A stretch of DNA of 64,000 nt from a virus (lineage: Duplodnaviria > Heunggongvirae > Uroviricota > Caudoviricetes), in IMG/VR virus record IMGVR_UViG_3300020060_000009; one strand, given 5' to 3'. The translations under genes were made by a program, and so were the position numbers. The notes under the pieces were generated by a model. It made no database searches. It was not told where the DNA came from and saw only the letters and a program-made list of their open reading frames with translations. Shown piece after piece: positions 1,312-25,656 of the stretch (position 1 is its first letter; each line of letters opens with the position of its first letter).

Positions 1312-2319
1312 TTATACCTGTTTTTTCTTCTTGTTGTCAAGTATTATATCTGTACGTTCGTTGGAGAATTTTAATCGCGCACAGACACCTATATTCACAT
1401 ACTTTGATATTTTAATACGTGAACTATCAGATTCATTAACGTGTGGTAGACCGTTCCAACTAAGTAGGTGTTTCCAAGCAAAGTCTGGATTACCATTCCT
1501 GCGATCACCCTCAAAGAGTAAAATATCTTTTAACGATGGGTATATTTTCAACACAGATTCTACCTCTGGTAAAATTCTTATAAGAACCCCCATCTTTTGG
1601 AGACTTGTCATGCCCTTTTCTACAGACTCTGATATAAGCAGCTTATCAAGTTCCTGTACCCAACGCTCAACAGATACATCGTAGATACGATCTGCGAGTT
1701 GCCTTGCCTTACCGATGAAATTGGGGTCAATTTCAAAATTATAACGAGCTGCAAAACGTGCCGCGCGAAGTATGCGAAGAGGGTCTTCTTGAATACGATC
1801 TTTAGGAAGCCCTACAGTTACAATTTGCTTGCTGTGGATATGAAGCTTGCCTCCGTATGGGTCATAGATAGTCCCATCTGGACGAAGTACCATCGCGTTC
1901 ATAGTGAAGTCACGACGAGCAAGGTCTTCGTCTAATGAAGCAACAAACTCTACTTCTGGCTTGCGAGACTTGCTTGTGTATACCTCAGAACGGAAAGTTG
2001 TTACTTCAACGTATTCGTAATCAGTGGCGACTACTTCACCAGTTTCATCTGATATGTTCACTGGGACCTTAAAACCAATAGTACCGAACTTCTTGCCAAT
2101 ACCATAAGACTTGCGCCCAGCCTTTTTAACGGCTGCTTCGATATCGTCTGGGAGCATAGGAGTAGTAAAGTCATAATCTTTTGGTTCATTACCCATAACA
2201 ATATCACGAACGGAACCACCAACAAGATAGACATCTTCTGTGCCAAGAATTTCAATTACTTGTTTTTGTATTGCTAATGCTTTTTCCATATTAATCTCTC
2301 TGTTCGCCTCTAAGGTCAC
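1312..2319 (-). CDS. cca: tRNA nucleotidyltransferase (CCA-adding enzyme, class II Pol-beta family)
   Basis: N-terminal motif GGSVRD...DYDF, which is the class II nucleotidyltransferase GGxVRD/DxD signature. RILRAARFAARY matches the head/neck region of CCA enzymes. Consistent with many phage tRNAs, some lacking an encoded CCA. Confidence 0.8.
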   Translation of the reverse strand: MTLEANREINMEKALAIQKQVIEILGTEDVYLVGGSVRDIVMGNEPKDYDFTTPMLPDDIEAAVKKAGRKSYGIGKKFGTIGFKVPVNISDETGEVVATDYEYVEVTTFRSEVYTSKSRKPEVEFVASLDEDLARRDFTMNAMVLRPDGTIYDPYGGKLHIHSKQIVTVGLPKDRIQEDPLRILRAARFAARYNFEIDPNFIGKARQLADRIYDVSVERWVQELDKLLISESVEKGMTSLQKMGVLIRILPEVESVLKIYPSLKDILLFEGDRRNGNPDFAWKHLLSWNGLPHVNESDSSRIKISKYVNIGVCARLKFSNERTDIILDNKKKKQV

Positions 2320-2626
2320 CTAATTTAATCTCTTCGCCTTTATACTCAAGATACACGGTAGTGACGTCAGAATAATAACCGTTTTGAACTGAACGCGCTT
2401 GACACCACTTAGGCATACCGTCTTTAGATGTTAGAGCAAAGCCATCTTCTTTGAGCGTTATTTTTTTAGCAAATTGCTTAGCTGTCATGTCTGGAAATTC
2501 TTGACCAACTTCAAATTGTTCAAAGTCTAGATAATTAGATGCGCAACAGTCTTCATCACCAACACCTTTAACAACTAAGCCATTATCAAACTCTAATAAA
2601 TCTTCTTCTGATTTTAATAATTTCAT
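2291..2626 (-). CDS. hypothetical protein
   Basis: 111-aa ORF in the operon. Confidence 0.4.
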   Translation of the reverse strand: MKLLKSEEDLLEFDNGLVVKGVGDEDCCASNYLDFEQFEVGQEFPDMTAKQFAKKITLKEDGFALTSKDGMPKWCQARSVQNGYYSDVTTVYLEYKGEEIKLGDLRGEQRD

Positions 2627-3312
2627 TTTCCCATCCTTATGCTATACAGCAATTCATCAATCTTTTTCCAATTAGGCTCGTCCGGAAGGATTGATTTAAT
2701 ATCTTCCATCTTTCTATCTTCAATAATGAAGGCGTCAACAACCGTTTCTGGTGTCTGTTCTCCCATCTTGAATAACCATTCTCGCTGCTCAGGAGTCACT
2801 CTAACGGTTAATTCGCCTGTTTCGAGAAGCTGTCTACATTGTAGCAGTAAACGGAAGCAATGTCTAGTGTGTTTTGCAAAACGGTTTTTAAGAGCACTAT
2901 CGTACCCCTCTTTACCCTCTTCCTGCCTCCTACTCAAGTCCATAGCTTGACCAAGAGCATAACCTCGATATGCGTTCGTGACTGCCGGAGTTGATAGAAA
3001 GATTTTGCGGTTATCTACTAACAATTTGCCAATAGGATTAAGCACAGTATAACTTTCAAGCCACAATAGTTCAGACACAGTTGGATTACCCCCACCAGCG
3101 AGCTTCATAAATTTACCAACTTCGTGATAAACTTCGTCTGGATTAGTGTTCTGTATGGTAGTTTTTTGTGGATTAAAATTGATACCTAGAACCGTGCTAG
3201 TAGGTAGTAAATATATACCTTTAACATCGGTATCACTAGACTCAGTTGCAAGCCCGTATGCTCTTGAGCCTACGACTCCCTCAAGTATAATTCGGTTTGG
3301 CTTTTTGTTCAT
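2623..3312 (-). CDS. predicted nucleotidyltransferase (GSxAYG...DxD minimal NTase fold)
   Basis: N-terminus VVGSRAYGLATESSDTDVKGIY resembles the Nuc-transf_2-type motif hGS.ayG..t..SD.D. Lies next to the CCA enzyme. Confidence 0.5.
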   Translation of the reverse strand: MNKKPNRIILEGVVGSRAYGLATESSDTDVKGIYLLPTSTVLGINFNPQKTTIQNTNPDEVYHEVGKFMKLAGGGNPTVSELLWLESYTVLNPIGKLLVDNRKIFLSTPAVTNAYRGYALGQAMDLSRRQEEGKEGYDSALKNRFAKHTRHCFRLLLQCRQLLETGELTVRVTPEQREWLFKMGEQTPETVVDAFIIEDRKMEDIKSILPDEPNWKKIDELLYSIRMGK

Positions 3313-3901
3313 TTTCTAACCTTTTGTTTTCCCAGCGTTTTTTCGCTGCATCAGACATTCTCTTTTTCCATTCGTCTGACATCGTACGCCCTTTTAGCGC
3401 TTTACTCAACGATGCGCTTCTTTTTTTGTTGTAGTCTTCTTCTCTATATTTGGCTTTCATTTTTTCAGAAAAGTTCTCTTGCCAAACTGGGTCTTGCCAT
3501 CTTCGTTTTAGGGCAAGTGATATATTAGCTCTATGTTCATCTGATATTTTTCTGCCCGTTAGTGTTTTACTGATCTGCGATTTTTGGTTTTCAGTTCGAA
3601 ACCCATTTCTTCCACCAAGAGTACCGTTATAGCCGTCTGGATGTATACTATTATGCGCCACAATCTCAGATATTTCAAGAGCATTTAATTCATTTACGAG
3701 ACTTTCACTGTCTTCGGCTTCGACTATATGCAAAACTACATGTTCAAAGTTTTTCCAACCATATTTTTTTATTGCCGAGCCGAATATAGTCGCAGGAGCA
3801 TATCCGTGACCAGAATCCCAACGCCTCTTTAATGTCCCTAACGTCTGCCCTATGTACGATTTACCCGAAGGTGATGTGTGTTTATAAATATAACCAATCA
3901 T
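3281..3901 (-). CDS. GIY-YIG homing endonuclease with NUMOD3 repeats
   Basis: N-terminus IGYIYKHTSPSGKSYIGQT (GIY...YIG) and a conserved Arg/Glu/Asn region. Repeated ISDEHRANIS / MSDEWKKRMS segments are NUMOD3-like DNA-binding repeats. Confidence 0.75.
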   Translation of the reverse strand: MIGYIYKHTSPSGKSYIGQTLGTLKRRWDSGHGYAPATIFGSAIKKYGWKNFEHVVLHIVEAEDSESLVNELNALEISEIVAHNSIHPDGYNGTLGGRNGFRTENQKSQISKTLTGRKISDEHRANISLALKRRWQDPVWQENFSEKMKAKYREEDYNKKRSASLSKALKGRTMSDEWKKRMSDAAKKRWENKRLENEQKAKPNYT

Positions 3902-4577: not shown

Positions 4578-4855
4578 ATCTTTATGTTCATTTCTTGTAA
4601 TTTTTCTATAAAATCATCATAAATAGTTTCGTAGTCATCTGTCTCATAACGACTAGCTAACTTTACTAGACGGCTGCTAATAGCGCTACCAACACGACCA
4701 CGAATACTGACATTGCCATCAGGTAAGCAAGTTCCAGAAAGAATTGTATTTTTTGTTGGGTCCACTACAATAGCAATTCTAATAGTGTAATTAGACTGTG
4801 GTGAATAAGCCACTAAATCACCCTTACCCAGTGTAGAGCCAAGAGCGTCTTTCAT
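4574..4855 (-). CDS. hypothetical protein
   Basis: 93-aa ORF; stop overlaps the upstream start. Confidence 0.45.
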   Translation of the reverse strand: MKDALGSTLGKGDLVAYSPQSNYTIRIAIVVDPTKNTILSGTCLPDGNVSIRGRVGSAISSRLVKLASRYETDDYETIYDDFIEKLQEMNIKI

Positions 4856-5820
4856 TACTTTATCTCCTTCACGTAACGACCCTTAATTCTGTCTTCTTCA
4901 CTGTAATAATTACCATACTCACGCTTAGCCTTAAACAATGTGTCAAGTAGCTTACCGTCGGTGTCTTTAAGTTTTAACTGACCCGACTTTGTTCGCGCTG
5001 GAGGCGTTCCTGTGGAGAATGAAATGTAAGTACGATCTTTCAATTCTTCTTTTAAAAATGTTTCAAGGTCTTCTGGCAAACCATTCTTGTGGGTGTAAGT
5101 GCTTAGGCTAATCCATGCTGTCATTTTAACTGGCTTTTCTAGTTTACGATATTTTGTTGCCTTACGTGAACCCCAGCGATAACTGCTGTAACTCTCTTCG
5201 ACTTCATAAGTCTCCAGAGTATCCCATACTTCGCCAAGACAAATATCAGTCTGGGTAAGAGTAGAATAAACACCTCCTATTTCCCAGTTCTTAGTCTTTT
5301 TAGCCTTTTTGAGGTCTGACTTTTGTTTCATGTCAGCTATTGCTTCTTTATAGGCTTCCATGTTTTCATGAATAAACCCAGGAACACCGCCCTTACGAAC
5401 GAACATAACTTTCTCTCTTATCACGCCCATGTCGATATGGCTATTGCGTATAAGATCAACAAGCAAAGCATCGTTCACGCCGATAATAAACTTTATGCCA
5501 TCTTTCTCAACTTCACAAGCTAAGAACGACAAACGGCCACCCTGTGATGAACCCCCAGCAGACTTAAGGATTTTTACAGTGAAGCCACCATTGTCGAATG
5601 TCTTAACGTCAGGCTCATATATTTTGGTATATTCTTTCTTAGCATAGTCATAGTTACGATCACGCGCCCAGTCCTTAGCAGATTCTAGACCTCTTTTATC
5701 ACCATGTTCTACAACGTATCCTGTAAATGTCCAAGTACTAGGCGATGTCTTTATTGCGACATCTATCTTGTCCATCATTTTCCAGCCATTATATGACATT
5801 ATAGATTCTCCAAAACCCAA
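4855..5820 (-). CDS. hypothetical protein (321 aa)
   Basis: Long ORF with no recognisable catalytic motif. Confidence 0.5.
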   Translation of the reverse strand: MGFGESIMSYNGWKMMDKIDVAIKTSPSTWTFTGYVVEHGDKRGLESAKDWARDRNYDYAKKEYTKIYEPDVKTFDNGGFTVKILKSAGGSSQGGRLSFLACEVEKDGIKFIIGVNDALLVDLIRNSHIDMGVIREKVMFVRKGGVPGFIHENMEAYKEAIADMKQKSDLKKAKKTKNWEIGGVYSTLTQTDICLGEVWDTLETYEVEESYSSYRWGSRKATKYRKLEKPVKMTAWISLSTYTHKNGLPEDLETFLKEELKDRTYISFSTGTPPARTKSGQLKLKDTDGKLLDTLFKAKREYGNYYSEEDRIKGRYVKEIK

Positions 5821-6119: not shown

Positions 6120-6331
6120 ATATTATTCTTAAACCCTCTGACGCCCAATTGATCTTTTGGGACAATCACGTCTTCGTATACTTTAACTATTTTTAACCAA
6201 GCATCTTCATTTTTAAGCTTGACTTGATTACCCTGCTTTATCAAGTCATCCTGTTCAACCCAAGTTGTCATCTGGCGACCAGTAGTAATAGACTCTAGGT
6301 CAATCTGGACCATTAAAGGAGAACTACTCAT
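6116..6331 (-). CDS. hypothetical protein
   Basis: 71-aa ORF, translationally coupled. Confidence 0.4.
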   Translation of the reverse strand: MSSSPLMVQIDLESITTGRQMTTWVEQDDLIKQGNQVKLKNEDAWLKIVKVYEDVIVPKDQLGVRGFKNNI

Positions 6332-6738
6332 TAGTTTTGATTACCTTGTTCTCTACTGGCGCGAGTCACCCACTGAATAACTTCAATAGTTTTAGGTTCT
6401 ACTTCAAGAATTGGACCATCCCATTCGCTAGAGTCCCAGCTATCGTAAAGACCAGTCTTTAAGAAGTAACGCATGTCGCTTCCCCAACCAACAGTCATAA
6501 CACAACGCATGTTGTGGTCGCCACCCTCTTCACCGTCGAAGAACTCTTTACATTTTAGTGTTACTTCTTGGTCATTCCCTATCTTTTTAAAAGTAATAGG
6601 AAATGTTCCTTCTCGCCAAAATTCAAACTCGTCTGTAAAAGGAAGCTTAATAGGGAGATCAGGAAACATTTTTTCAATCAAAATAGCTTCGTTAATAGCT
6701 GCCTGTAGTTGATCGACTGTAAATGTTGTCTTACTCAT
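6331..6738 (-). CDS. hypothetical protein
   Basis: 135-aa ORF. Confidence 0.45.
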   Translation of the reverse strand: MSKTTFTVDQLQAAINEAILIEKMFPDLPIKLPFTDEFEFWREGTFPITFKKIGNDQEVTLKCKEFFDGEEGGDHNMRCVMTVGWGSDMRYFLKTGLYDSWDSSEWDGPILEVEPKTIEVIQWVTRASREQGNQN

Positions 6739-6837: not shown

Positions 6838-7161
6838 TTAGATTCTCTCATATTCTGTGCGTTGCACTTTTGCTGCCTTCACCTCATATAGTTCTCCATC
6901 AAGTTCTCCACCATCGTAAGAAGCGTACCAACCTTCCTTGCGAAAGAATTGATCGCCGACCTTAAACACTACCCAAAACTCGTCACCAGAACCTTCACCA
7001 CCGTACTCATCAACAAACTTTAAAGTTCCAAAACCTGTAACTTCTATATCTTCTTGTTCGCCTTTTAGATCGTAGTAAACACCACCACCATAAGTTGATT
7101 CATAACCAGCTTCTTCAAATTCACTTATTTTCTCTTCTACTTCTTTTGCTGTAAAACTCAT
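6838..7161 (-). CDS. hypothetical protein
   Basis: 107-aa acidic ORF. Confidence 0.45.
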   Translation of the reverse strand: MSFTAKEVEEKISEFEEAGYESTYGGGVYYDLKGEQEDIEVTGFGTLKFVDEYGGEGSGDEFWVVFKVGDQFFRKEGWYASYDGGELDGELYEVKAAKVQRTEYERI

Positions 7162-7170
7162 ATATACCCT

Positions 7171-7938
7171 TTATAATTTTATTAGTTTATTACTATTATC
7201 TTTATGAACTTGTACATAATTAACATCCGGCGACCATAGCGCTGCGAGATTCTCGACAATAAATAATGCGAACCAACCTCTAGTAAGCGATGTAACTGTT
7301 CTGCGGAGTGCCCATGCGTAAGCTCTACGAGGGCTATAGGTATAGTTGGACGGAATTACCAAACGCTCCAAAGCTGTAGCATATACCTCTTCTCTTACAC
7401 ATTTAAGCTTATCCTCAAATGGCATAGCCTCCCATTTTGATTTATCTACTTTTACTTCTTCGTCATCTGCTAATATTCTTTCGTAAAGTGGAGTGTCATA
7501 GTAAGCAACAGAAGCATGGATAGAATCGTGAACATAAATTCTGACAACCTTATCATTAAAGAACTCACCTGCCATCTGATTAAGATTAGCTTTTTTATTA
7601 CCGTGAATTTCTAGCCATATCTTATAAAGCACTTTATAAAGAGGCCCTATAAGCTTTGCGCCATTCTCTTGCATTAACATAATATCTCTGGCGTGTTTTT
7701 CCCATGTGCCGTTGCGCAAATCCCAAAATATATGAGACACCTTAATGGAATAAAGTTCATCTAAACTAGCAGTTCTATCAACATCACTAAAATATTCCTT
7801 TAATGACTCGTGACTAAAAGGGTCATTACCACCCTTTTTAGGTTTCATGACTTCATCAGTGAAATAATCAACGTCCTGCGGAGTGCGACCAATATCAATA
7901 TGCTGTACTAGAGCAGTTGAGCCCACCAAGATTTTCAC
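7171..7938 (-). CDS. hypothetical protein (255 aa)
   Basis: ORF with a possible DVDYF Asp pair, but no secure family assignment. Confidence 0.45.
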   Translation of the reverse strand: MKILVGSTALVQHIDIGRTPQDVDYFTDEVMKPKKGGNDPFSHESLKEYFSDVDRTASLDELYSIKVSHIFWDLRNGTWEKHARDIMLMQENGAKLIGPLYKVLYKIWLEIHGNKKANLNQMAGEFFNDKVVRIYVHDSIHASVAYYDTPLYERILADDEEVKVDKSKWEAMPFEDKLKCVREEVYATALERLVIPSNYTYSPRRAYAWALRRTVTSLTRGWFALFIVENLAALWSPDVNYVQVHKDNSNKLIKL

Positions 7939-8483
7939 GAAACAAAGTCTCTGTATCCACGCATTAACAATCTCTTTAAGAAATTAGGGCGCTTAGTCTT
8001 GGGGACAGGTGTTACTTGGCTCTTAACTAACCCAACTGTATACTCGATTCTTTTAAGAGTCTGTAGCTCTTGAGAATCTGGCTTATAAGGTGAAACAGTG
8101 TTACAGTCATCGTAATCATCGTTGTCTTCATAGCCAAATAAGTTAAACGGAGCAAATATCTCTCGTTTCTGCTCGTCACTTGCATCAAACGGGACAACCG
8201 CCAATGCTGTAATAGAATAAGCGCTAATCTCATTTACACCCTCGTCAATGTAATATTGTGAATAAATACGAGCACTTTTTAAATATTCATGTAAGTTTCT
8301 GATTTGTTCAGAGTTTTCTGCTTCCAGAACTACCACAGTTCTCCTGTAGTTGTCCGCAAATTGATTACTACCAGCAACACCTTGCAACATCATAGCTGCA
8401 TGAACAGCTTGAGCTGCTGCTTTACCCGCACTCATATTAAGTTCTTTGTTCAGTACAACGTATAGTATTGGATTTTCTCTCAT
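7935..8483 (-). CDS. pth2: peptidyl-tRNA hydrolase, PTH2 family
   Basis: ILYVVLNKELNMSAGKAAAQAVHAAM aligns to the PTH2 signature ([25 protein letters not shown] in human PTRH2). The following beta-strand region is also conserved. Carries a C-terminal ~60-aa acidic extension. Confidence 0.75.
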   Translation of the reverse strand: MRENPILYVVLNKELNMSAGKAAAQAVHAAMMLQGVAGSNQFADNYRRTVVVLEAENSEQIRNLHEYLKSARIYSQYYIDEGVNEISAYSITALAVVPFDASDEQKREIFAPFNLFGYEDNDDYDDCNTVSPYKPDSQELQTLKRIEYTVGLVKSQVTPVPKTKRPNFLKRLLMRGYRDFVS

Positions 8484-8537
8484 ACTACTATTGTACGAGC
8501 TTGTGGTTAAAAAAGCAATACCTTTTTTAGATTTTCG

Positions 8538-9335
8538 TTAAACTAATCCCCATCGTGCAAGCTGTTCAAAACCTCCGAGGTGTTCTATATATTGTCTAGC
8601 AATCCCCACTATTTCCGAGTATTCCTTGCCATCAATCTTCTCGTCACCAATTGCACAATGAAGTTCAACAACTTCACCTGTCTCTTGCGCTTTAAGATGT
8701 GCATAAATATTCACAGCTACATCCGCTTTAGATAAGTCTTTACCGTGTAGACCACCACCCGTAACAGCTTCACCCATATCAGAGCCTAGTTTGCGATTTG
8801 TAGCACCAGTGTCGGCATCTAGCCCACCTGTCCAATAACCGAGTGGGTTAATGACAAGATCATGCTTATACAGCTTAGACAAAAATTCGTTTAAAACAAA
8901 TGTAGAAGCATAAGACTGACAAACGATTAACCTATTGCCAGCTAAAATATACTTACCATCTGTTGGGAAATTATCGTAGATTGTTTTAGCAATATCAGAT
9001 AAATCAGAAATATCTTTTTTAATAGGGACACCCTTAAAGATACCATTATCTCCAGCACGAGTTTCATCCTCTTGGTTCTTAGCTAACTCTACATCTTGAG
9101 GAACCTCAATATATTCAACTGTCAGATTACCAGCAATACGATTAACTATATCTTTGACAATCCAAGTGTCAATATTCACCGATGTCTCGCCAATGATATA
9201 CACCTTACCATGTCCAATGAGAACCTCGAATGCGCATCTTGGTTCATCCTCTATCTCATAAGCATAATCAACTAATGCGCCAGCAATACGATCTGCAACT
9301 TTATCTGGGTGTGATGGGTTTACTTTTTCTATCAT
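8538..9335 (-). CDS. metK: compact S-adenosylmethionine synthetase (MetK/MAT-like, ~266 aa)
   Basis: PSHPDKVADRIAGALVD matches the MetK N-terminal SEGHPDKxxDQISDAxLD motif. RAGDNGIFKG matches GAGDQGLMFG. TGGGLHGKDLSKADVAVNIYAH matches [23 protein letters not shown]. About 100 aa shorter than bacterial MetK. Start taken at the internal Met preceded by an AGGA ribosome-binding site. Confidence 0.7.
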   Translation of the reverse strand: MIEKVNPSHPDKVADRIAGALVDYAYEIEDEPRCAFEVLIGHGKVYIIGETSVNIDTWIVKDIVNRIAGNLTVEYIEVPQDVELAKNQEDETRAGDNGIFKGVPIKKDISDLSDIAKTIYDNFPTDGKYILAGNRLIVCQSYASTFVLNEFLSKLYKHDLVINPLGYWTGGLDADTGATNRKLGSDMGEAVTGGGLHGKDLSKADVAVNIYAHLKAQETGEVVELHCAIGDEKIDGKEYSEIVGIARQYIEHLGGFEQLARWGLV

Positions 9336-9345
9336 ATATTCCTCT

Positions 9346-10248
9346 CTAAAAACTATAATTAGGGTCGCCAAGTTGTGCAACATTTATTCCGTATACATCA
9401 CGAAGCATATTCGCTACTGCTACACGGTCATCGAACCATAAGAGGACATTGTATTTGCCAACAATATATTTCTCTATCATATCTGCTTTGACTAATGTGT
9501 CCTTAACTTGGTTGCCACGTTCATCTACATGTTCACTTCCACGCATATAGAGTTCATCGTATTCAATATCATTCTTCTCTAACCAAGCTTCTGTCTCTGG
9601 GCGACATACTTCATCACGGCCACTAAATATGAATAACTTTGCATGATTGATTAAAGTAACACCATCTAACATATGTGCGACACCTAAGTTGATATCATCG
9701 TTGCCAACTTTGTGCCACTCATAAGGAGAACGGTCTTTTGGGCCTAGCGTAAGAGTGCCGTCTAAGTCTGACACTACTACAAAAGGCAGTTCTGGGTCAT
9801 ATTTCAAGAAGGTGGGTAGCTTTTTAACAAAGCTATGGAACATCCCACGAATTACCTGTTCTCCTACCGAGTTATCTCTTGCTTTGTCACGTTCAATTAG
9901 TTCAGCGAGCGGGACATCGAGGAAATCCTTCTGCTCAACAGTAGCGCTAAATTCTCGCGCGATTGCGGAGAGTCCAGTGACATGTTTTGGATTGAGATTT
10001 GTATCGGAGCTAACAACATTTTTTCCTTGTGAAAGGGATTGACGAATGAGCCTATTTCTTTCTTTGAGAACAATCGACTCATCTCCTCTTTTGTGATTAT
10101 ATATCCCGTCTCGAAACAGACGTCCATCTCTTCTGATGTCATCTTTTTCAACACGAACCCACCCTTTTTCAACGAGTTCTTTGGCATAAGTGGTCTTTCC
10201 GCTTGCGGGCAACCCGCGCAGAATAAGAACTTTTAGTTTTTTTGTCAT
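9346..10248 (-). CDS. pnk: polynucleotide 5'-kinase/3'-phosphatase (T4 Pnk-like)
   Basis: N-terminal P-loop GLPASGKTT (kinase domain). C-terminal HAD motif VVVSDLDGTL (DxDGT) typical of the T4 Pnkp phosphatase domain. Confidence 0.8.
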   Translation of the reverse strand: MTKKLKVLILRGLPASGKTTYAKELVEKGWVRVEKDDIRRDGRLFRDGIYNHKRGDESIVLKERNRLIRQSLSQGKNVVSSDTNLNPKHVTGLSAIAREFSATVEQKDFLDVPLAELIERDKARDNSVGEQVIRGMFHSFVKKLPTFLKYDPELPFVVVSDLDGTLTLGPKDRSPYEWHKVGNDDINLGVAHMLDGVTLINHAKLFIFSGRDEVCRPETEAWLEKNDIEYDELYMRGSEHVDERGNQVKDTLVKADMIEKYIVGKYNVLLWFDDRVAVANMLRDVYGINVAQLGDPNYSF

Positions 10249-10254
10249 TTTTGT

Positions 10255-11538
10255 TTATACTTTTCCTTCTTCTTCCATGTCTAGAGTTCCCTCTGCCATG
10301 TTTTGGTTATCGTAACCCACGAAGGTAGCGCTCTTAGCTTTAAGAGTAAAGGGAGCAATTCCTTCTGCGCGGATTACCACGCCCTCATCACAAGGGCTAT
10401 CTTTATCTAGTGGGACAGCTCCTGGGAAGCCATCTTCTTTGTAACGGTGCATTTCTTCATGTCCAGCAAAGTCAATCCAGTCTTCTGGTTTAAACTCTTT
10501 GTACTTACCGCGCCATAGTAGTGGGACTACTTTCAGTTCACGGTCACGACAGAACTCTGCGATCTGGTCATAAGTCAGGTCGGCAACAACACCCTCTGGG
10601 TTAATCATTCCTACACGGTAAACGTATAAGTCTGCAACTCCCTGTGGAATCTGGTATGTGTACTTGCTCTGTAGTGGAGCACCCTCTGCTGTCCAGCCAA
10701 TAAGCTCACCATAGACCAAGTAGCCCTGTGGAATTTTGCCCATAAGCTTCTCACCTTCTGTGGACCAGATATCTGTGTCATAGAAGTGAACGTGGCTTGG
10801 ATTATTCTTGTCCTTAATAACACGGCGTGAACCGTAAACGTAGTCATACTCTTTTTCTTGGACAACTGCACCAATCTTCTTGGCAACTTTGTCCTTCCAT
10901 GTCATCTTGCGCTGCACGATAGTATTTGCAATACGAATAGATGTTCCGTGTAGTTTCTGTGTAACAGTAACATCTGCATTTTCAGGAATAACATGTGAGT
11001 TTTTGAAGTAGTTATCTGTGTCATAATGCTGTGGCAAGAACTTCTCATCAACACGGCTAAAGATTTTCTTGTTCTTCTCTAGTATTGTTTGTGCGCGAGT
11101 TGCCTTACGAATAAACTTCTTACAAATTTCATGGTCGCCAATGCGGTCAAACGTATCACCCTCAACGAATAATGAAGTATCTAACTTCTTAATGTAAGAG
11201 AGCGCACTTAGCTTGACCACAAGGGCATCCGAGCGATGACCACGCAGTTTAAGAGAGCGGATGTGTCGGTTATCTTCAAGATATCCAGACTCAGCCTGAT
11301 TCTCGTTCTTATCGTTGTGACGGTATAAGTTATTCTTGTAAGCAAATTCCTCTGAAAGCTGCGTACCTGCGGTAAATACCAATGCGAGGTCTCCGTAGTC
11401 AGAGGTCTTTGCTACAAGTGCTTGGCTTCCCAAAACTTGAAGTCCTACAAGGTTGTCTAAACCTTCTAGAGCCACAGGCTTTGGCAAGCGCACTATCACA
11501 CCTGCGTAGTCACTGTTTTCTGGTTCTAATAGTTTCAT
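10255..11538 (-). CDS. rnl: RNA ligase (Rnl2-like nucleotidyltransferase)
   Basis: Motif I QKLHGTSIR matches the KxHGxN covalent nucleotidyltransferase motif of T4 Rnl2-type ligases. Adjacent to pnk, the classic tRNA-repair pair. Confidence 0.65.
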   Translation of the reverse strand: MKLLEPENSDYAGVIVRLPKPVALEGLDNLVGLQVLGSQALVAKTSDYGDLALVFTAGTQLSEEFAYKNNLYRHNDKNENQAESGYLEDNRHIRSLKLRGHRSDALVVKLSALSYIKKLDTSLFVEGDTFDRIGDHEICKKFIRKATRAQTILEKNKKIFSRVDEKFLPQHYDTDNYFKNSHVIPENADVTVTQKLHGTSIRIANTIVQRKMTWKDKVAKKIGAVVQEKEYDYVYGSRRVIKDKNNPSHVHFYDTDIWSTEGEKLMGKIPQGYLVYGELIGWTAEGAPLQSKYTYQIPQGVADLYVYRVGMINPEGVVADLTYDQIAEFCRDRELKVVPLLWRGKYKEFKPEDWIDFAGHEEMHRYKEDGFPGAVPLDKDSPCDEGVVIRAEGIAPFTLKAKSATFVGYDNQNMAEGTLDMEEEGKV

Positions 11539-11603
11539 TTTGTTTTTCTCTCTTTGTTTCTGTTACTATTTTACGACACTAAAATAAAAAAAGCAATAGC
11601 ATT

Positions 11604-12383
11604 TTATAAACCAGCATGCCAAACATTACTACGGCCTAAGGGAGTTAAGTTAATCACCATAGAATCATTAGTAGCTTCAACCCATAATGTTTTGCCGTTC
11701 TTCTCTGTTAGATGAGTGACAGGTACGAACCAATCTATATAATTTTTCCAACCTAATTGCCTAAATTCTATTGCCATATTTACATCAGGACCGAGTCCAT
11801 TGCTTGAACCAAATTTGTGCATCTTATATAAATCAGCTCTGATTAAAGCACAATACAATCCACAGGCATCCACCTCTTCTACCTCGGTTGTCCCTACTTT
11901 GTTTTTCATAGATGTTATCTTTCGAGGATTATCTATATTATCAACTTTCCATGCGCCAACATATGGTGTTCCCCACCGTCCTAGTTCAACACCAGTAACA
12001 ACACCAACTGCTGGATAATTTTGGACATCGTTAACAAGCCAAGATAAAGCATTTTCAGGTAAAATTCCATCATCTTCAATTGAGAATATCCACTCAATAT
12101 CTTCTCCAATCAAACTTTTAATCTGATTATGAATTGAGCTAATTCTAGCCCTGCGTTGTGGGATTGTAACGGCTGAATCACCCCAGTTATTTGACCTAAC
12201 GCATAGTACGTCATTTAGGGGCAATGACGCAAGTTTATTATGAACTTTGATATATAAGTCATTCGAGCCGTCAACGACCACTAGAAGCGCTGTACGCTCC
12301 TCGTATGACTGGTTTAATAGTGATTCAAGTACAAGATCAAGGTAGGTCAGGCGACTTACTGGCAGTATTGTTAATATTTTCAT
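11604..12383 (-). CDS. family 2 glycosyltransferase
   Basis: VVVDGSND and a DxD-like EDDG. Overall GT-A fold pattern. Confidence 0.6.
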   Translation of the reverse strand: MKILTILPVSRLTYLDLVLESLLNQSYEERTALLVVVDGSNDLYIKVHNKLASLPLNDVLCVRSNNWGDSAVTIPQRRARISSIHNQIKSLIGEDIEWIFSIEDDGILPENALSWLVNDVQNYPAVGVVTGVELGRWGTPYVGAWKVDNIDNPRKITSMKNKVGTTEVEEVDACGLYCALIRADLYKMHKFGSSNGLGPDVNMAIEFRQLGWKNYIDWFVPVTHLTEKNGKTLWVEATNDSMVINLTPLGRSNVWHAGL

Positions 12384-12567
12384 TTTGTATTTTTAGTATT
12401 TCATTGTATTGTTTTAATATATCTTTTGATTCACGAACAGCTTTATCCCATTCACGATTTGGTGATTTGGCGCTAATAGCCTTGATATAAAGAGGCTCTG
12501 ACAAAACAGCGCGTAATAGCACAGCTAGTTTCGCATCAATTATTTCTAATCTCTCTTCTACTGTCAT
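12337..12567 (-). CDS. hypothetical small protein
   Basis: 76-aa ORF overlapping the neighbouring gene ends. Confidence 0.3.
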   Translation of the reverse strand: MTVEERLEIIDAKLAVLLRAVLSEPLYIKAISAKSPNREWDKAVRESKDILKQYNEILKIQNENINNTASKSPDLP

Positions 12568-13265
12568 TTTGTTTTAATTTTCTTAAATTTTTTGCCATTA
12601 ACTATCTCGAGCATTGTGTGGTCACCATAAGGCGTTCCATCCGCATAGGTAGAGAATGTATCAATACACCAAATATCCTTTGCAACTTCCCAACAAGTTT
12701 CACTAGGAGTATGACCAAACACCTGGGGAATTTGCGCATAACTTCCCCAACTTGGACGAACCCATAGAGGAGAATGATCTTGCCATAGATCATCCATCTC
12801 GTTAGTACCATTCCAGCCGTGTGCTATACCAGCATGTGAAAAAGTTACACCATCCTCTTCTAGAGTAATAGGTAGGCCAAGTAACCAGTCTTTTAGGTAT
12901 TTATACGCTGGCGCATTGATAGAAAGTTGTGTTACGGCGTTATAACCACTTTGTAGACTTGGAGTTTTGTTGACGTATATAAAATCATGGTTACCAAGAA
13001 CAAGCTTTACTTTGTCTTCGTTAGCTTGTTGCAACATAAAAAGTCTATGCCATGTATCAATGGATTCAAGACCGTCTTTACCAAAGTCGTCAGCATAATC
13101 TCCAACAAAAATAACACGATCATACTTAGGAAGCAGTTTTTCAACTCTATCTATTACAAATTGTTTCGTATGCACATCACCGACTGCTAATATTTTCATC
13201 TTGTTCCTTAATAAGTTTTTGTTCTTGATATTCGTTATATCTTCTTGCACCCTCTTCTGCATCAC
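12564..13265 (-). CDS. calcineurin-like metallophosphoesterase
   Basis: Motifs GDVH, GDYADD and GNHD in order, the classic Ser/Thr phosphatase / phosphoesterase signature. Confidence 0.75.
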   Translation of the reverse strand: MMQKRVQEDITNIKNKNLLRNKMKILAVGDVHTKQFVIDRVEKLLPKYDRVIFVGDYADDFGKDGLESIDTWHRLFMLQQANEDKVKLVLGNHDFIYVNKTPSLQSGYNAVTQLSINAPAYKYLKDWLLGLPITLEEDGVTFSHAGIAHGWNGTNEMDDLWQDHSPLWVRPSWGSYAQIPQVFGHTPSETCWEVAKDIWCIDTFSTYADGTPYGDHTMLEIVNGKKFKKIKTK

Positions 13266-13419
13266 CCTTGATTTTTTCTCTAGACTCGATTATTAAATCA
13301 ATAATCTTATTATTTTCGTCAACAGAAACTTGAGCTATTTCGTTACGTTGAAACAGAGAACGACTTTCCCCATCTACCATGTAAAAAGCATCTGTAGTCA
13401 TGTAACTACGCAAGGTCAT
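13177..13419 (-). CDS. hypothetical small protein
   Basis: 80-aa ORF. Confidence 0.3.
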   Translation of the reverse strand: MTLRSYMTTDAFYMVDGESRSLFQRNEIAQVSVDENNKIIDLIIESREKIKGDAEEGARRYNEYQEQKLIKEQDENISSR

Positions 13420-14440
13420 TGATCAGTTTCTCCCATTTTCCCTCAAGCTCATAATTAGAGAACTCTTCGTACCCTATATTATATGCTATCTTCTTCTCTG
13501 CTTGCAAGTCCTTTTTTGCTAAAAAGTCTAATCTCTGCCCTAAAGTAGCGTGGTTAACAGTGTAAAGATCAATTAAAGTTCTCGTCATAAACTTACCTGT
13601 TTCCGTAGCGGGGGTTAACCAATGTTGAGGTAATATTTTATCATTGGGCGAAATATCGGTCATAAGAACGGGCATTCCGGCACAGAGCGCTTCTGTCATT
13701 GGCAAACATTGTCCACCGTATCGTCTAGGAAGAATCATGGCATCAAAATCACGATACAATTCCACTTCATTTTCTGGACTTGATGTGTCAATTGTAATTC
13801 TTGGATCGTTATAAGTATTTACAACACCACCAACTTGTGTCTTAATTACTAATTCAAAGTCTTCACCACTATAGCGCATAGCTCTAATGAGGTCTTCTGT
13901 CCCATTACGATCATTTACTGCTTGTCTCCCCATGATATGCAAGAAGCGTTTTCTGCCCGTGCGTTTTAGGTTATGTTCTCTGACTTCTTTAAAGTCATCA
14001 ACAAACACAGGCGTGGGGAGATATTCGACACTGCCCCATAATGAACGTGCATCTGCTAAATGCCATCTACTAGGAGAAATAAGTTTATCGGGTAAAGTTA
14101 GTTCAGGTTGACGAAGATAATCAGCGAACTCCCAGTTGTATTGGTTGATTGTTTTGACTCCCATATGCTTTGCAAGGTCTACAAATCTAGTATTGTAAAA
14201 AATCTCACAAGTGATAACAATATCTATACCGCGAAGCCACTCTATAACCTGCTGGTTAGTCGGGAATCCGTTTATCTCCGTGACACTATATGTAGCATAG
14301 GTATCTGGATATTGTTTATTGCCGTTAAAAAATGAGCTGTTAATAAGCATAATCTCGTCTGGGCGAATCATCCGTGCTAAGTTGCGAGTCTGATTGCCCA
14401 AGCCAGTTCTATCACTTCGTGCTATTAGTCCAATTCTCAT
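13406..14440 (-). CDS. putative glycosyltransferase (GT-B like)
   Basis: 344 aa with a Rossmann-like N-terminus and an E-x7-E-like C-terminal region. Weak assignment; sits in a glycosylation cluster. Confidence 0.45.
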   Translation of the reverse strand: MRIGLIARSDRTGLGNQTRNLARMIRPDEIMLINSSFFNGNKQYPDTYATYSVTEINGFPTNQQVIEWLRGIDIVITCEIFYNTRFVDLAKHMGVKTINQYNWEFADYLRQPELTLPDKLISPSRWHLADARSLWGSVEYLPTPVFVDDFKEVREHNLKRTGRKRFLHIMGRQAVNDRNGTEDLIRAMRYSGEDFELVIKTQVGGVVNTYNDPRITIDTSSPENEVELYRDFDAMILPRRYGGQCLPMTEALCAGMPVLMTDISPNDKILPQHWLTPATETGKFMTRTLIDLYTVNHATLGQRLDFLAKKDLQAEKKIAYNIGYEEFSNYELEGKWEKLINDLA

Positions 14441-14646
14441 CTTATGCGCTCCACTTTAGATATATCTACAAATATATGCAGTTTCATCCAACAATCAAGT
14501 CTACTCGGAGGTTTAACCCTTGTAGGATTTGCAATTGGCATAAACCCAGGTATCTCAACAATTTTTCTTTTGCCACAACCAATGCAAACCACAATGCGTT
14601 CAACTCGATTAACGTTTTGTTTTCTCACTTGATATTTAGCTCTCAT
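14437..14646 (-). CDS. small Cys-containing protein
   Basis: 69-aa ORF with CIGCGKRK. Confidence 0.3.
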   Translation of the reverse strand: MRAKYQVRKQNVNRVERIVVCIGCGKRKIVEIPGFMPIANPTRVKPPSRLDCWMKLHIFVDISKVERIR

Positions 14647-15203
14647 TTTGTCGCCTCAAATACGAGGCTCTCTTTTGGCCGTGTATCATATTCACTACTT
14701 TCCAGTTGTACTACTTTCCGGAACCCCGCTTCTTCCAATACTTTCGCCATTCTTGCTGGTGTATATAGAGAATCCCTTGTGCTGTAGCCAGAGATAGCGA
14801 AACAAAGCTTATCGTCAATAGAACCCTCATCAATCGGTATGTCTTCACTTCGCCCCTCCTCATAAGATTTAAATACTTTTAGCAAATCCATATCAATCAC
14901 AACCAGCTTTGCTCCTGGCTTTAATGTTCTGTGGATGTTAATTAGCGCTTTATGCACAAGATAGTCGTTCATTGTACATAGCACATGGTTAATAACACCG
15001 CCGTCGAAACGCTCGATGTATTTATCTTCTGGTGTTTGTGTCATGTCCCAGTAATGGAAACTATCATTGCCAATGCTGCCATTGACAAAGATAGAATCAA
15101 AGTTATACCACTTCTCTTCCTCAGTACTTTCTTTTAAATCTGGTCCAGAACCGTAGTTAGCAAATTTAAACGGAAACATTTTTGCCCCACATGTTTGTAG
15201 CAA
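14643..15203 (-). CDS. class I SAM-dependent methyltransferase (putative)
   Basis: Rossmann-like core HVLCTMNDYLVHKALINIHRTLKPGAKLVV resembles the Methyltransf_11 C-terminal motifs. Confidence 0.45.
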   Translation of the reverse strand: MLQTCGAKMFPFKFANYGSGPDLKESTEEEKWYNFDSIFVNGSIGNDSFHYWDMTQTPEDKYIERFDGGVINHVLCTMNDYLVHKALINIHRTLKPGAKLVVIDMDLLKVFKSYEEGRSEDIPIDEGSIDDKLCFAISGYSTRDSLYTPARMAKVLEEAGFRKVVQLESSEYDTRPKESLVFEATK

Positions 15204-15648
15204 TCAGTTGTGCTCTTTTTTCATTTGCTATCTTTATAGCATGTTTTTTGTTTTTAGCCAAAACATCTATCCCCATAACCCATTCACCATTGTGCAATTT
15301 ATCTTCGTCTTTACCATGTGACCATCTTTCTCCGGTGTGGAAATGAGGGTATTCATGCTTAATAAAATTTGGTGTATCTAAATCCCATGAATATCTATCG
15401 CTACCGTGTTCATACACATCAAAGTCAGCAGGGTTTTGAGGCAATTCGCCGTTTTCAAACATATTAACATAAAAAATCTTATAACCATTTTGAATATAAC
15501 TTGGTGCTTCTGGATTAAGCGGATATTCTTCTACTCTTCTCTCGTAGAAAGCACCAGCAAAAAGTTCCGCCTTTTTTTCATCAGTAAATACACCAACTAT
15601 ATGATAGTCAGAGTAATCACCTTCCGTCACTACATAAGCATTATTCAT
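15166..15648 (-). CDS. hypothetical protein
   Basis: 160-aa ORF. Confidence 0.4.
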   Translation of the reverse strand: MNNAYVVTEGDYSDYHIVGVFTDEKKAELFAGAFYERRVEEYPLNPEAPSYIQNGYKIFYVNMFENGELPQNPADFDVYEHGSDRYSWDLDTPNFIKHEYPHFHTGERWSHGKDEDKLHNGEWVMGIDVLAKNKKHAIKIANEKRAQLIATNMWGKNVSV

Positions 15649-16286
15649 ATTTTATAAAACCTTTCCGGTACATACATTAAATATGGGTCTAAAATACCTG
15701 TCCCTATTTGTGAGCTGTAACACATAAGCGCTCTTATCTTATCTGCCATACGAGATTTCTCTTGAATTGTACGGGCTGGCTTGTATGCAATACCTAATTC
15801 TTTTAACCTAGTTGGAACAAGCTCTGGTTCTGTGACACGAATTGGCAAGTCCTCCCATAGCATGACTGGCAAGTCGGTCTCTAAGCTAAGAACTGCGTCG
15901 CTTACCCTTAAATGGTCTGGGTGCCCTAACCCAAGTGGGGCATAAATTCCTTCATATTCTCCACCATCTACAATTCTTTGCAGCACTTCTGCTATCTCTG
16001 ATTGTGTCACATCTTCGCCGTATTGTCCATCAGGAAAATCTAGGTCTACATTTGTCGCGCTTAATAAGGCAGTGGCAGCATCATTCTCTCGGCGACGTTC
16101 TGAAACTGCATCTTGGGCATTTTTGAACCCGCACTTTAAATCGTAAGGGGTTACTACAGTCTCCGAAGCATCTGGATATCCACCGAAAACGGTAACAACA
16201 GTAGTATCAGGGCGTTCTGCCATGAATTGACCAGCGCTAAGGATAGCGTCATCGAAGTGGGGGCTAATTATGAGTAACTTATTCAC
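15645..16286 (-). CDS. PIG-L / LmbE family N-acetylglucosaminyl deacetylase
   Basis: ISPHFDDAILSAG near the N-terminus and GHPDH, the PIG-L zinc-binding motifs. Confidence 0.7.
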   Translation of the reverse strand: MNKLLIISPHFDDAILSAGQFMAERPDTTVVTVFGGYPDASETVVTPYDLKCGFKNAQDAVSERRRENDAATALLSATNVDLDFPDGQYGEDVTQSEIAEVLQRIVDGGEYEGIYAPLGLGHPDHLRVSDAVLSLETDLPVMLWEDLPIRVTEPELVPTRLKELGIAYKPARTIQEKSRMADKIRALMCYSSQIGTGILDPYLMYVPERFYKI

Positions 16287-16388
16287 TTTCTACCTCTGCC
16301 AAAACAAAATATGATGGCGTCTCTGTTTCGCCTAACGGGATTGGTGGTTTAATGATCTCCCATTTGCTTCCATCATCAGCTGTAATTA

Positions 16389-17939
16389 TCATATCTTTTC
16401 CATCCAGAATCTAATATTATGGTTTTCCAACTCCTCACTTTTTACACTAAACTTACATTTACTATAAAAACCAGTTGTCTTTCCGTAGTGCTTTGTCGGG
16501 TCAAAGAAGTCCATAGACTGAATATCAAACCCTCTTACATGTGTCGGGTCAATCCATAAGAACTCTGCTTTCCAGCCTGGAGTCTGTATATACAATATCC
16601 CACCTGGCTTCAAAATACGATGACATTCTTCCAGAAACTTAATAACGCCATGATCTTCGCCGATATAAGGAGGAAGATGCTCAATAACATCAACTGCTTT
16701 GATCTCGCTAGCAGAATTGTCTTCAAATGGATAAGGAAATTTCATCAAATTATGGACAACATCTATGTTCGGCAAGTCGATCATATCCACATTAATCCAA
16801 CCCGGAAATGCGTCTTCACCTGCCCCTAAGTTTATTCTTAAATCTGGCTTAATTTCTATTGCTGTTGAATCTTTATCAATTGGTTTAATAGGTGACAATG
16901 GTTTGCCTTTCATTTCTTGTGTTGCTGTTATTGTTGTCGCTTTGTCAGAAACCTCAAAAACGTCGCCTGTGTGGGACTTTGGATCACCAAACGCCCCTTC
17001 GTCGTCTAAAGTATCTAAGAGGGCTTGTAGGCGCTTAGAATACGTCTGAGAGGACTTTACGAACTCGTGTCCTGCCTTGCGAATTGCTTCACGCTCTTCA
17101 TCATGCTCTAAATAGTAATTTATCTTCTCATCAAGCTCTTCAAAATTTCCGTATTCATAAAAGACTGCATTTACATTTTCTTGAAAAAGATCAGCCACAC
17201 CTTCAATCCGAGGATATATAGTGAAAGCACCGCGACCAATACTTTCAAAGAGACGATCTGACGTATAGTTTTTGTGTTTGAATCCAATATTGACAGAGTC
17301 ACCAACAGCGATTTTAGAGTTTGCATAAAGTTGATTAAGCTCTGTACCCCTGACTGTTCGTTGTGGATGTCCAAACTTTTTATATCTTTCTCCATACTTA
17401 TCCTCCAAATGTTTTACTAACTCGTAACGATAAGCCCATTCTTTGTGGCCGTATTCTGCACCTCCACCAACAAAGATGACATCTCCGCTTAATGAAGCAT
17501 CATTGTTTGGAGGGAGCATGATACACTCTTGTTCAAACACGCCGGGAAGAAGCCAGTAATGATTAATTCCTTTACTGTCGAAGAAAGCTTGTGATTCAGG
17601 ATCGCCATCTGCACTAAATACATATTCAGTTCTCCAAAACGGATCGCTCTCAATACCAGATTGTCTAGAAAGGCCAACATAAAGATCAAGGTGATAAGAA
17701 GCTGTTGGAATACCTCGCTCCTTTAATATCGCAAGATCAGCAAGTGTTACCATTTTGCCCCAAGTACGTGTATATAGAAATAGATCGGTGTCCTCTGGCA
17801 CTCTTTGAAGCCAAGATGGGTCATGATGAGCAAGTTCTTGGATGCGAACAACTTCATGACCCATGCTCTCAAGGGTCTTAGCGATATGGTTTTCTGTAGT
17901 GAAGTCTACACTATAATTTCCAACGTATGTTATTTTCAT
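16389..17939 (-). CDS. bifunctional glycosyltransferase / SAM-dependent methyltransferase (predicted)
   Basis: 516 aa. N-terminal 300 aa are GT-like. C-terminal VDVIEHLPP...ILKPGGILYIQTP is a Methyltransf_11/23 signature. Confidence 0.55.
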   Translation of the reverse strand: MKITYVGNYSVDFTTENHIAKTLESMGHEVVRIQELAHHDPSWLQRVPEDTDLFLYTRTWGKMVTLADLAILKERGIPTASYHLDLYVGLSRQSGIESDPFWRTEYVFSADGDPESQAFFDSKGINHYWLLPGVFEQECIMLPPNNDASLSGDVIFVGGGAEYGHKEWAYRYELVKHLEDKYGERYKKFGHPQRTVRGTELNQLYANSKIAVGDSVNIGFKHKNYTSDRLFESIGRGAFTIYPRIEGVADLFQENVNAVFYEYGNFEELDEKINYYLEHDEEREAIRKAGHEFVKSSQTYSKRLQALLDTLDDEGAFGDPKSHTGDVFEVSDKATTITATQEMKGKPLSPIKPIDKDSTAIEIKPDLRINLGAGEDAFPGWINVDMIDLPNIDVVHNLMKFPYPFEDNSASEIKAVDVIEHLPPYIGEDHGVIKFLEECHRILKPGGILYIQTPGWKAEFLWIDPTHVRGFDIQSMDFFDPTKHYGKTTGFYSKCKFSVKSEELENHNIRFWMEKI

Positions 17940-25654: not shown

Positions 25655-25656
25655 TT

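Follow-up and report, generated by a model that had tools for sequence, protein, structure and literature searches.

A putative RNA-repair and translation-rescue module with an Rnl5-like ligase, a tailed PTH2-family hydrolase and an inserted compact MetK in an uncultured phage lineage

Gene Content of the Locus

The IMG/VR record IMGVR_UViG_3300020060_000009 comes from an uncultured virus of the Caudoviricetes. The 64,000 nucleotides (nt) of it analysed here, referred to as the window, contain a cluster of genes whose products belong to families of RNA-repair and translation enzymes. Four adjoining open reading frames (ORFs) were verified on the minus strand: an ATP-dependent RNA ligase (10255-11538), a T4-type polynucleotide 5'-kinase/3'-phosphatase or Pnkp (9346-10248), a compact MetK-like protein (8538-9335), and a PTH2-family peptidyl-tRNA hydrolase (7935-8483). 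The intergenic gaps measure 6 nt (ligase/Pnkp), 10 nt (Pnkp/MetK), and 54 nt (MetK/PTH2). Catalytic motifs are intact in all four products of 7935-11538, and the strength of the profile matches makes chance an unrealistic explanation for them. The original prediction for this locus had named the same four families and had seen a healing-and-sealing pair in Pnkp and the ligase; the profile matches bear out all four assignments, and the pair is indeed present in the window.

Pnkp and the RNA Ligase

Pnkp (300 amino acids, aa) consists of an N-terminal P-loop kinase (AAA_33, 61.9 bits, residues 7-136) fused to a C-terminal DxDxT phosphatase of the HAD type (HAD_PNKP, 95.5 bits, residues 157-297). 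It matches phrog_505 (polynucleotide kinase) in PHROGs with an E value of 2.7e-70 and aligns end to end with T4 Pnkp (1ltq; residues 6-289 with 3-292, E 2.7e-25), while the phosphatase domain also matches Pnkp1 (4xrp, E 2e-22). The active-site residues line up with their T4 counterparts: the P-loop GLPASGKT (12-19), D36/R39, DLDGT (161-165), SGR (209-211), K249, and DD (273-274, in FDDR).

The RNA ligase (427 aa) matches PF09414 (49.8 bits, residues 189-392) and phrog_968 (RNA ligase). Its motif I reads TQK195LHGTS, with K195 as the adenylylation lysine; the motif is therefore KxHGxS (K195-L-H-G-T-S) and not KxHGxN, as it had first been read. The lysine-adenylate motif is present on alignment of the 10255-11538 product, and none of motifs I, III, IIIa, IV, and V varies among the 39 sequences aligned. 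The invariant residues include K195, E278, Y307, D384-E385-G386...R390, and K400/K402.

To which class does this ligase belong? It had been described as Rnl2-like, an assignment that does not fit its domain order. The nucleotidyltransferase (NTase) domain is C-terminal; it is preceded by ~170 conserved residues that form an OB-type domain (~1-170) and is followed by no C-terminal appendage. The Rnl2 layout of an N-terminal NTase and a signature C-terminal domain is thus absent, and the score against TIGR02307 is 18.6 bits (cutoff 197). An AlphaFold2 model was built from the 39-sequence alignment (pLDDT 86), and its top 13 PDB matches in Foldseek are all NgrRnl (E ~1e-12, ~425-437 aligned columns); T4 Rnl2 and REL1 align over the NTase core only (E ~1e-8). 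Ligase homologues at ~55% identity match PF21189 ('PHA02142 OB-fold domain') over residues 13-110, with the window ligase itself falling under the threshold of this model. Searches of the PDB by sequence alone, whether from the ligase or from a profile of 8 sequences, returned marginal Rnl2 matches only. A PDB match of the ligase to LSm8 (E 0.0012) was treated as spurious.

The Rnl5 family is defined by the N-domain plus NTase layout, and homologues have been noted in Mycobacterium phages; its members are nick-sealing RNA ligases (PMC4408790). Like DraRnl from Deinococcus and NgrRnl from Naegleria, the window ligase combines an N-terminal OB-type domain with a C-terminal NTase and lacks a C-terminal appendage. 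Unlike them, it is ~90 residues longer (427 vs 339 aa) and scores low with the Rnl5 equivalog TIGR02306 of the DRB0094 family (13.1 bits, cutoff 151), while it is 43-44% identical to the ligases of mycobacteriophages and XacN1. The modelled fold thus places the ligase as Rnl5-like in architecture, in a separate and longer clade to which the XacN1 and mycobacteriophage ligases also belong, and not as Rnl2-like.

Relatives of the window, which are contigs or isolate phage records, are numbered here as loci with the prefix L. In one of them, the groundwater phage L020, the ligase gene (7013-8857) is called as three ORFs of 281, 170, and 185 aa, the last of which alone matches PF09414; a frameshift, an intron or intein, or an assembly error are possible.

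The PTH2-Family Hydrolase

The product of 7935-8483 (182 aa) stays within the PTH2 family in a profile search, with a PF01981 match of 57.8 bits (cutoff 23) over residues 7-102; the string AGKAAAQAVHAA corresponds to residues 19-30. A profile of its clade matches the archaeal and human Pth2 structures 24bt, 1rlk, 1rzw, 1wn2, 1q7s, and 2zv3. K21, D80, E81, and T92 are invariant in an alignment of 26 clade sequences, and K21 and D80 coincide with the GK and D(A/E)G positions in Pth2 chains of known structure. The Lys of the GK motif and the Asp of the DxG motif are catalytic residues in archaeal Pth2.

The protein is not a typical archaeal Pth2: it scores 41.5 bits (cutoff 126) and 30.7 bits (cutoff 82) with the NCBIfam equivalogs. 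Its clade is divergent: the core of ~115 residues is followed by an acidic linker and then by a C-terminal tail, basic and aromatic, at residues 164-182. The whole extension past the core comprises residues 117-182 (window 7938-8135). The tail sequence ends ...KRPNFLKRLLMRGYRDFVS, and the tails of the clade often finish with F/YVS. The last 20 residues carry a net charge of at least +2 in 106 of 120 PTH2 homologues (median +4). The matched archaeal Pth2 chains have only 115-127 residues and so are without an extension comparable to this tail.

Relatives in isolated phages are remote. A tblastn search of PTH2 against isolated phages found none, even at E up to 1, and such relatives surface only through profiles (PHROG 1866; ValKK3 ORF233). 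The presence of PTH2 beside the repair pair had been regarded as unusual. This was overstated, because PTH2 has already been described in phage toolkits for RNA repair and ribosome rescue by Iyer et al. in 2021 (PMC7824862).

Further Genes of the Module

The same repair module also holds two genes that had been overlooked, those for RlaP and orf321. RlaP (2623-3312, minus strand) lies a few kb from the repair genes, matches PF10127 (84.4 bits, cutoff 23) and phrog_388, and is conserved 0.6-1.9 kb downstream of PTH2 in relatives. Proteins of this family add 1-2 nt to damaged RNA 3' ends (PMC12776372). The gene orf321 (4855-5820, minus strand) lies between PTH2 and RlaP and is 50-65% identical by tblastn in L004-L011, L029, L033, L035, and L038; no informative match was found for it in Pfam, NCBIfam, or PHROGs.

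A CCA-adding-type tRNA nucleotidyltransferase is encoded at 1312-2319 (minus strand). It has a PolyA_pol head (97.8 bits) and an RNA-binding domain, and its best NCBIfam model is CCA tRNA nucleotidyltransferase (E 1.2e-57), with a score under the equivalog cutoff. In relatives that lack insertions, both RlaP and the CCA enzyme are found within 1-3 kb of PTH2.

Directly downstream of PTH2 is a gene for a DUF7275/DUF7277 protein (7171-7938, minus strand; PF23940, 211 bits; weak PF23942 match), whose GTG start overlaps the PTH2 stop by 4 nt. It is absent in L004-L011 and present in L020, a distribution as restricted as that of MetK. Homologues of DUF7275/DUF7277 occur in 732 phage records, in all of which they are annotated as hypothetical. 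In the Vibrio phage ValKK3 (L022), a DUF7275 homologue is situated 2.7 kb from a divergent PTH2-family ORF, and in the Streptomyces phage Beuffert (L024) another is found ~1 kb from a small PF09414 ligase. The N terminus of DUF7275 (GS...DVD) resembles the motif of Pol-beta nucleotidyltransferases; the assignment to this type has only the weak DUF7277 match, and no support was found in the PDB or NCBIfam.

The window also encodes a tmRNA (24493-24845, minus strand), which matches the full length of the Rfam model RF00023 (86.3 bits, E 4.5e-32) and is not called by ARAGORN. ARAGORN and Rfam each report 26 tRNAs, and the union of the two is 28 tRNA genes, arranged in arrays on the minus strand (27934-41192). 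The translation context claimed earlier, namely a tmRNA, a CCA enzyme, and about 30 tRNAs, is therefore real. A 147-aa ORF on the plus strand (24256-24699) overlaps the tmRNA and is probably spurious. ARAGORN also places a tRNA without an assigned identity and with an 'anticodon' of two bases (tt) at 39355-39429 (minus strand); its Rfam tRNA score is 52 bits, and the anticodon loop may be unusual.

Conservation of the Gene Cluster

Is the proximity of these genes a peculiarity of one genome? The same locus was found on metagenome contigs up to 99 kb in length. Among isolated phages, nothing was recovered by megablast of 7000-12500 or by tblastn of the capsid protein, nor was PTH2 found there as described above; this points to an uncultured lineage. 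Diverged relatives, which come from marine, groundwater, and other metagenomes, share a conserved gene order: glycosyltransferase/methyltransferase (GT/MT), GT1, metallophosphoesterase, GT2, Rnl, Pnkp, PTH2, orf321, RlaP, CCA.

Pnkp is located within 1.6 kb of PTH2 in 13 of the 15 metagenome loci that could be evaluated (PTH2 identity of at least 43%). Two of these 13 loci, L044 and L045, are rearranged to the order RlaP-PTH2-Pnkp, and the IMG/VR loci L012 and L013 also show a rearranged order. The linkage of PTH2 to Pnkp is therefore conserved in relatives, and its survival through rearrangement argues for a functional connection beyond inherited gene order. At 46 distant PTH2 loci, of which 28 are at least 10 kb long, no homologue of Pnkp, Rnl, RlaP, CCA, or MetK was detectable. 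This makes the linkage a feature of the present phage clade.

What is established here comprises the family assignments, motifs, domain architecture, synteny, insertion status of MetK and DUF7275, and conservation of promoter-like footprints. The likely reading is that the four genes sit within a larger module for RNA-damage reversal and translation rescue, conserved vertically in an uncultured, tRNA-rich phage lineage. The core order of this module is Rnl5-like ligase, Pnkp, PTH2, orf321, RlaP, and CCA enzyme.

A calcineurin-like metallophosphoesterase gene (12564-13265, minus strand) is syntenic just upstream of the ligase in all relatives. Its product is nearest to ApaH and NinI-like phosphatase models and could be an additional RNA-end-healing enzyme or an Np4N-related enzyme.

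Compact MetK and Transcription of the Cluster

The MetK ORF was listed as 8538-9383, and its real start is the ATG at 9335: an AGAGGAA ribosome-binding site precedes this codon, following the TAG stop of Pnkp, and all homologues begin with MIEKVNP. Of the three Pfam domains of MAT (N, M, and C), only S-AdoMet_synt_N passes in this protein of 265 aa (43.6 bits, cutoff 33.1), and TIGR01034 gives 51 bits against a cutoff of 309. The motifs HPDK, GDNGIF, DGK, DxDTGxxNRK, and GGGxHGKDxSKxD are nonetheless unchanged in all 27 family members compared and can be matched to the corresponding segments of MAT. Relative to the full-length MAT 6rjs, the protein lacks ~44 residues in the central domain and ~52 in the C-terminal one.

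This compact family has at least 8000 members, with lengths of 262-268 aa and ~65-73% identity to the window MetK; no biochemical study of the compact form was found in the literature. A truncated MetK has been noted in a Streptococcus prophage, where it is ~135 aa shorter than E. coli MetK and retains the catalytic region (PMC8223999). The truncated MetK proteins of Javan-like prophages of Streptococcus (12/111phiA) and of Gram-positive phages belong to the same compact MAT family (58-66% identity). They differ in their surroundings: the genes of those phages adjoin DNA methyltransferases or restriction-modification genes, whereas the window MetK is located between Pnkp and PTH2, in an uncultured and tRNA-rich phage whose homologues in isolate collections are only distant.

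Does MetK belong to the repair module? It had been counted as a member of the repair operon. In most relatives it is absent at this position: MetK is found at the Pnkp-PTH2 junction only in the contigs of the window lineage itself and in the groundwater phage L020/L041, and it is missing from L004-L011 and most metagenome relatives. The L020 MetK is 70% identical to that of the window; the L020 PTH2 is ~53% identical in the clade alignment and 68% over the best tblastn segment. MetK and the DUF7275 gene are thus lineage-specific insertions in the module, with MetK at the 3' end of the Rnl-Pnkp unit.

The neighbours of compact MetK genes elsewhere suggest what the protein does. A methyltransferase dependent on S-adenosylmethionine (SAM) is nearby in all 7 of 7 contexts sampled, and within two genes in 5 of them. 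In other phages, compact MetK directly adjoins DNA methyltransferases, and metagenomic copies occur a few genes from Methyltransf_21, from ParB-N6_N4_Mtase and a C5 methylase, or from Methyltransf_23 and a glycosyltransferase. This company makes SAM supply the likely job of the family, and not tRNA repair. The window MetK most likely supplies SAM to phage methyltransferases and would have no part in RNA repair. The nearest methyltransferase domains in the window are two of class I, at 14643-15203 and in the C-terminal part of 16389-17939, both in the adjoining glycosylation cassette.

The cluster had also been read as a single four-gene operon. No minus-strand terminator-like site is found between the four co-directional genes. 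Yet two copies, and no more, of a composite element, TATTGCTTTTTT-N13-TCGTA(A/C)AATAGTA, are present in the window, both on the minus strand: at 11564-11598, 5' of the ligase gene, and at 8486-8520, in the 54-nt gap between MetK and PTH2. Both copies read TTGCTT, a 17-nt spacer, and TA(A/C)AAT (TAAAAT at the ligase, TACAAT at PTH2), and the -35 box overlaps a small AT-rich hairpin, AAAAAGC-TNTT-GCTTTTTT. At the PTH2 element, hexamers and spacing are kept in L004, L007, L009, L010, and L020, while the spacer sequence has diverged; the L010 version is TTGACA-17-TAAAAT. The element of the ligase gene is kept at the same position in L004 and L020. A conserved promoter-like element within the cluster makes a single operon doubtful. 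There are probably two co-regulated units, Rnl-Pnkp-MetK and PTH2-DUF7275, expressed from similar sigma70-like promoters.

At PTH2, the -10 box ends 6-7 nt ahead of the ATG (6 nt in the window) and there is no Shine-Dalgarno sequence; in L011-L013, which are more distant, a GGAG(G) site is present. This arrangement suggests that PTH2 is translated from a leaderless or near-leaderless mRNA.

These data bear on the idea that all four genes, including MetK, form one dedicated tRNA-repair operon, with SAM from MetK feeding a methylation that protects the repaired tRNA, as Hen1 does in bacterial Pnkp/Hen1 systems. MetK follows Pnkp so closely, with its own ribosome-binding site, that it is probably co-transcribed with Rnl-Pnkp, and the order Pnkp-MetK-PTH2 is kept in L020 despite the divergence of PTH2. 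Bacterial Pnkp1-Rnl-Hen1 systems likewise join healing and sealing enzymes to a SAM-dependent step, and this repair uses SAM (PMC4411300). The window differs from them in that its Pnkp is of the T4 HAD type and not the metallophosphoesterase type, and in that Hen1 was not detected: a search for a Hen1-like methyltransferase linking MetK with RNA repair found none, and both methyltransferase domains of the cassette are unlike Hen1. Since MetK is also missing at the junction in most relatives, is found beside DNA or other methyltransferases in unrelated phages, and is separated from PTH2 by the conserved promoter-like element, such a four-gene tRNA-repair operon is highly improbable.

A Possible Mechanism of Repair and Rescue

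How might the products of the module act together? All enzyme activities are inferred here from family biochemistry, homology, and gene context, as are the RNA that is repaired, the nuclease that cuts it, what MetK does, and where transcription starts. A ribonuclease of the host or of a competitor, for example an anticodon nuclease or another ribotoxin, would cut tRNA or another structured RNA. Pnkp would take off the 3' phosphate and phosphorylate the 5' end, RlaP could put back one or two nucleotides lost from the 3' end, and damaged acceptor ends would be rebuilt by the CCA enzyme. The ligase, adenylylated on K195, would then seal the healed break. PTH2 would hydrolyse the peptidyl-tRNAs that pile up when ribosomes stall and return the tRNAs to the pool, with the phage tmRNA and 28 tRNAs serving as a backup. 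In one sub-lineage, the compact MetK and the DUF7275 gene have been inserted into this module. The same scheme of repair and rescue, with peptidyl-tRNA cleared by PTH2, has been proposed for jumbo phages by Iyer et al. (PMC7824862). Host abortive-infection tRNases are a plausible target of the cluster.

Several points weigh against a conserved module for the repair of cleaved tRNA. Much of the synteny comes from a single phage lineage, so that shared ancestry instead of selection could explain part of it. All four products score far under the NCBIfam equivalog cutoffs, so each is a divergent member of its family whose specificity could differ. A generic scan for promoters and terminators performed overall no better than on shuffled sequence and left both promoter-like elements unflagged; the elements were missed because their -35 box fits 3/6 consensus positions. 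Characterised Rnl5 enzymes favour duplex nicks with an RNA 3'-OH strand, and not the anticodon-loop breaks that are sealed by T4 Rnl1 (PMC4408790), so the natural break may be in a stem or in rRNA. Finally, no DNA methyltransferase that could use the SAM of MetK, in particular no cytosine methyltransferase, was found near the Tet/JBP dioxygenase gene just outside the window or among the larger window ORFs that were scanned.

Might the ribosome be the damaged substrate? The main rival explanation is rescue and repair of rRNA, in which PTH2, recruited to stalled ribosomes through its basic tail, frees the nascent chain, after which Pnkp and the Rnl5-like ligase mend cut structured rRNA, comparable to the action of PrfH-RtcB2 on colicin E3 damage. 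PrfH-RtcB2, too, is a genetic pairing of a peptidyl hydrolase and an RNA ligase, which couples nascent-chain release to sealing (PMC9304027, PMC6514570), and this pairing has been validated experimentally (PMC9304027). The preference of Rnl5 ligases for nicks in duplex contexts agrees with an rRNA target, as does the positive charge of the PTH2 tail in 106 of 120 clade members. Leaderless expression of PTH2 would, moreover, be independent of the anti-Shine-Dalgarno end of 16S rRNA. The two systems are unlike in their folds: PrfH-RtcB2 consists of a release-factor homologue and a 3'-phosphate ligase, whereas the window has PTH2, a 5'-phosphate ligase, and Pnkp. The target of PrfH-RtcB2 is 16S rRNA. 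RlaP and the CCA enzyme of the module act on RNA 3' ends and tRNA, known Pth2 enzymes act on free peptidyl-tRNA, and the PTH2 tail could equally bind tRNA. An rRNA repair system is for these reasons unlikely.

A related and somewhat speculative proposal concerns the PTH2 clade itself. Instead of a plain cytosolic peptidyl-tRNA hydrolase, it might be a phage ribosome-rescue factor whose conserved basic, aromatic tail docks on stalled or damaged ribosomes or on broken peptidyl-tRNA, whose leaderless mRNA suits compromised initiation, and which acts in sequence with Pnkp, RlaP, and the Rnl5-like ligase, so as to be a functional analogue of PrfH-RtcB2 built from unrelated folds. This proposal is tentative and, on the present evidence, doubtful.

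Neighbouring Genes

A variable cassette next to the repair genes (11604-17939) contains glycosyltransferases, a PIG-L deacetylase, and methyltransferase domains. Just beyond window position 1, at 19015-20548 of L001, are genes for a Tet/JBP dioxygenase and a TET-associated glycosyltransferase. Together with the cassette, these genes suggest hypermodification of the phage DNA.

This setting raises the question of whether Pnkp and the ligase serve DNA or RNA-DNA hybrid ends, for example by sealing ribonucleotide-3' nicks during replication or repair of hypermodified phage DNA, with the adjacency of PTH2 being incidental. T4-type Pnkp acts on DNA ends too, and the cluster borders a DNA-modification region both within the window (the glycosyltransferases) and just outside it. 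Rnl5 seals nicks that have DNA 5'-phosphate and template strands, and its involvement in RNA-patch repair of DNA has been put forward (PMC4408790). However, the linkage with PTH2, RlaP, and the CCA enzyme, which have RNA or tRNA substrates, outlasts rearrangements, and the genome invests heavily in translation, with its tmRNA and 28 tRNAs. A role at DNA ends is accordingly very unlikely, and repair of RNA within a translation-rescue module remains the preferred reading.

Two ORFs that contain NUMOD3 and resemble homing endonucleases were found at 3281-3901 and 22822-23319. The RlaP gene is overlapped at its start by one of them, an arrangement consistent with mobile elements being active near the repair genes. 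Just downstream of DUF7275, two adjacent genes on the minus strand (6331-6738 and 6838-7161) encode small acidic paralogues that both match phrog_18295. Among the tRNA arrays are genes for a LemA-family protein, an ATP-grasp protein of the R2K clade, a HIRAN plus PD-(D/E)XK nuclease protein, two vWA-domain proteins, and an SPFH/Band-7 protein (25073-27197, 31543-32694, 33579-34613, 36970-37830, and 44754-45542); these may be host-takeover or counter-defence genes.

Relation to Known Systems

Phage T4 counters the anticodon nuclease PrrC with a bifunctional kinase/phosphatase from this family and the RNA ligase Rnl1, which is ATP-dependent, and it also has an RlaP homologue, NrdC.11 (PMC12776372). 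The window differs in that its ligase is Rnl5-like and not Rnl1, and in that the repair pair shares a physical cluster with PTH2, RlaP, and the CCA enzyme. A close parallel is the toolkit described in jumbo phages by Iyer, Anantharaman, Krishnan, Burroughs, and Aravind in 2021, which likewise includes an ATP-dependent ligase, PNK-HAD, RlaP, a CCA enzyme, PTH2, and many tRNAs (PMC7824862). In contrast to that toolkit, the window genes form a tight conserved block, with an adjacency of Pnkp and PTH2 that persists through rearrangements; the PTH2 clade is basic-tailed and apparently leaderless, and the lineage is without a cultured relative.

The locus is therefore a further instance of an already known phage repair and rescue toolkit. 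The original prediction was sound as to the gene families, the repair pair, and the translation context, and went astray on the Rnl2-like ligase, MetK as part of the module, the single operon, and the rarity of PTH2. What is new is modest: an Rnl5-type phage ligase, a basic-tailed and probably leaderless PTH2, a Pnkp-PTH2 linkage that survives rearrangements, and a hitchhiking compact MetK. The latter calls for caution in annotation, as a gene inside a repair cluster need not belong to the pathway. The locus also offers three enzymes for testing, namely the Rnl5-type phage ligase, the tailed PTH2, and the compact MAT.

Phage counter-defence against translation-targeting nucleases is well studied only for T4, with Pnkp and Rnl1 acting against PrrC. 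Here, an uncultured lineage of aquatic phages keeps an extended, T4-like kit as one conserved block, and the stable adjacency of Pnkp and PTH2 provides genomic backing for the published idea that the clearance of peptidyl-tRNA takes place within the repair response.

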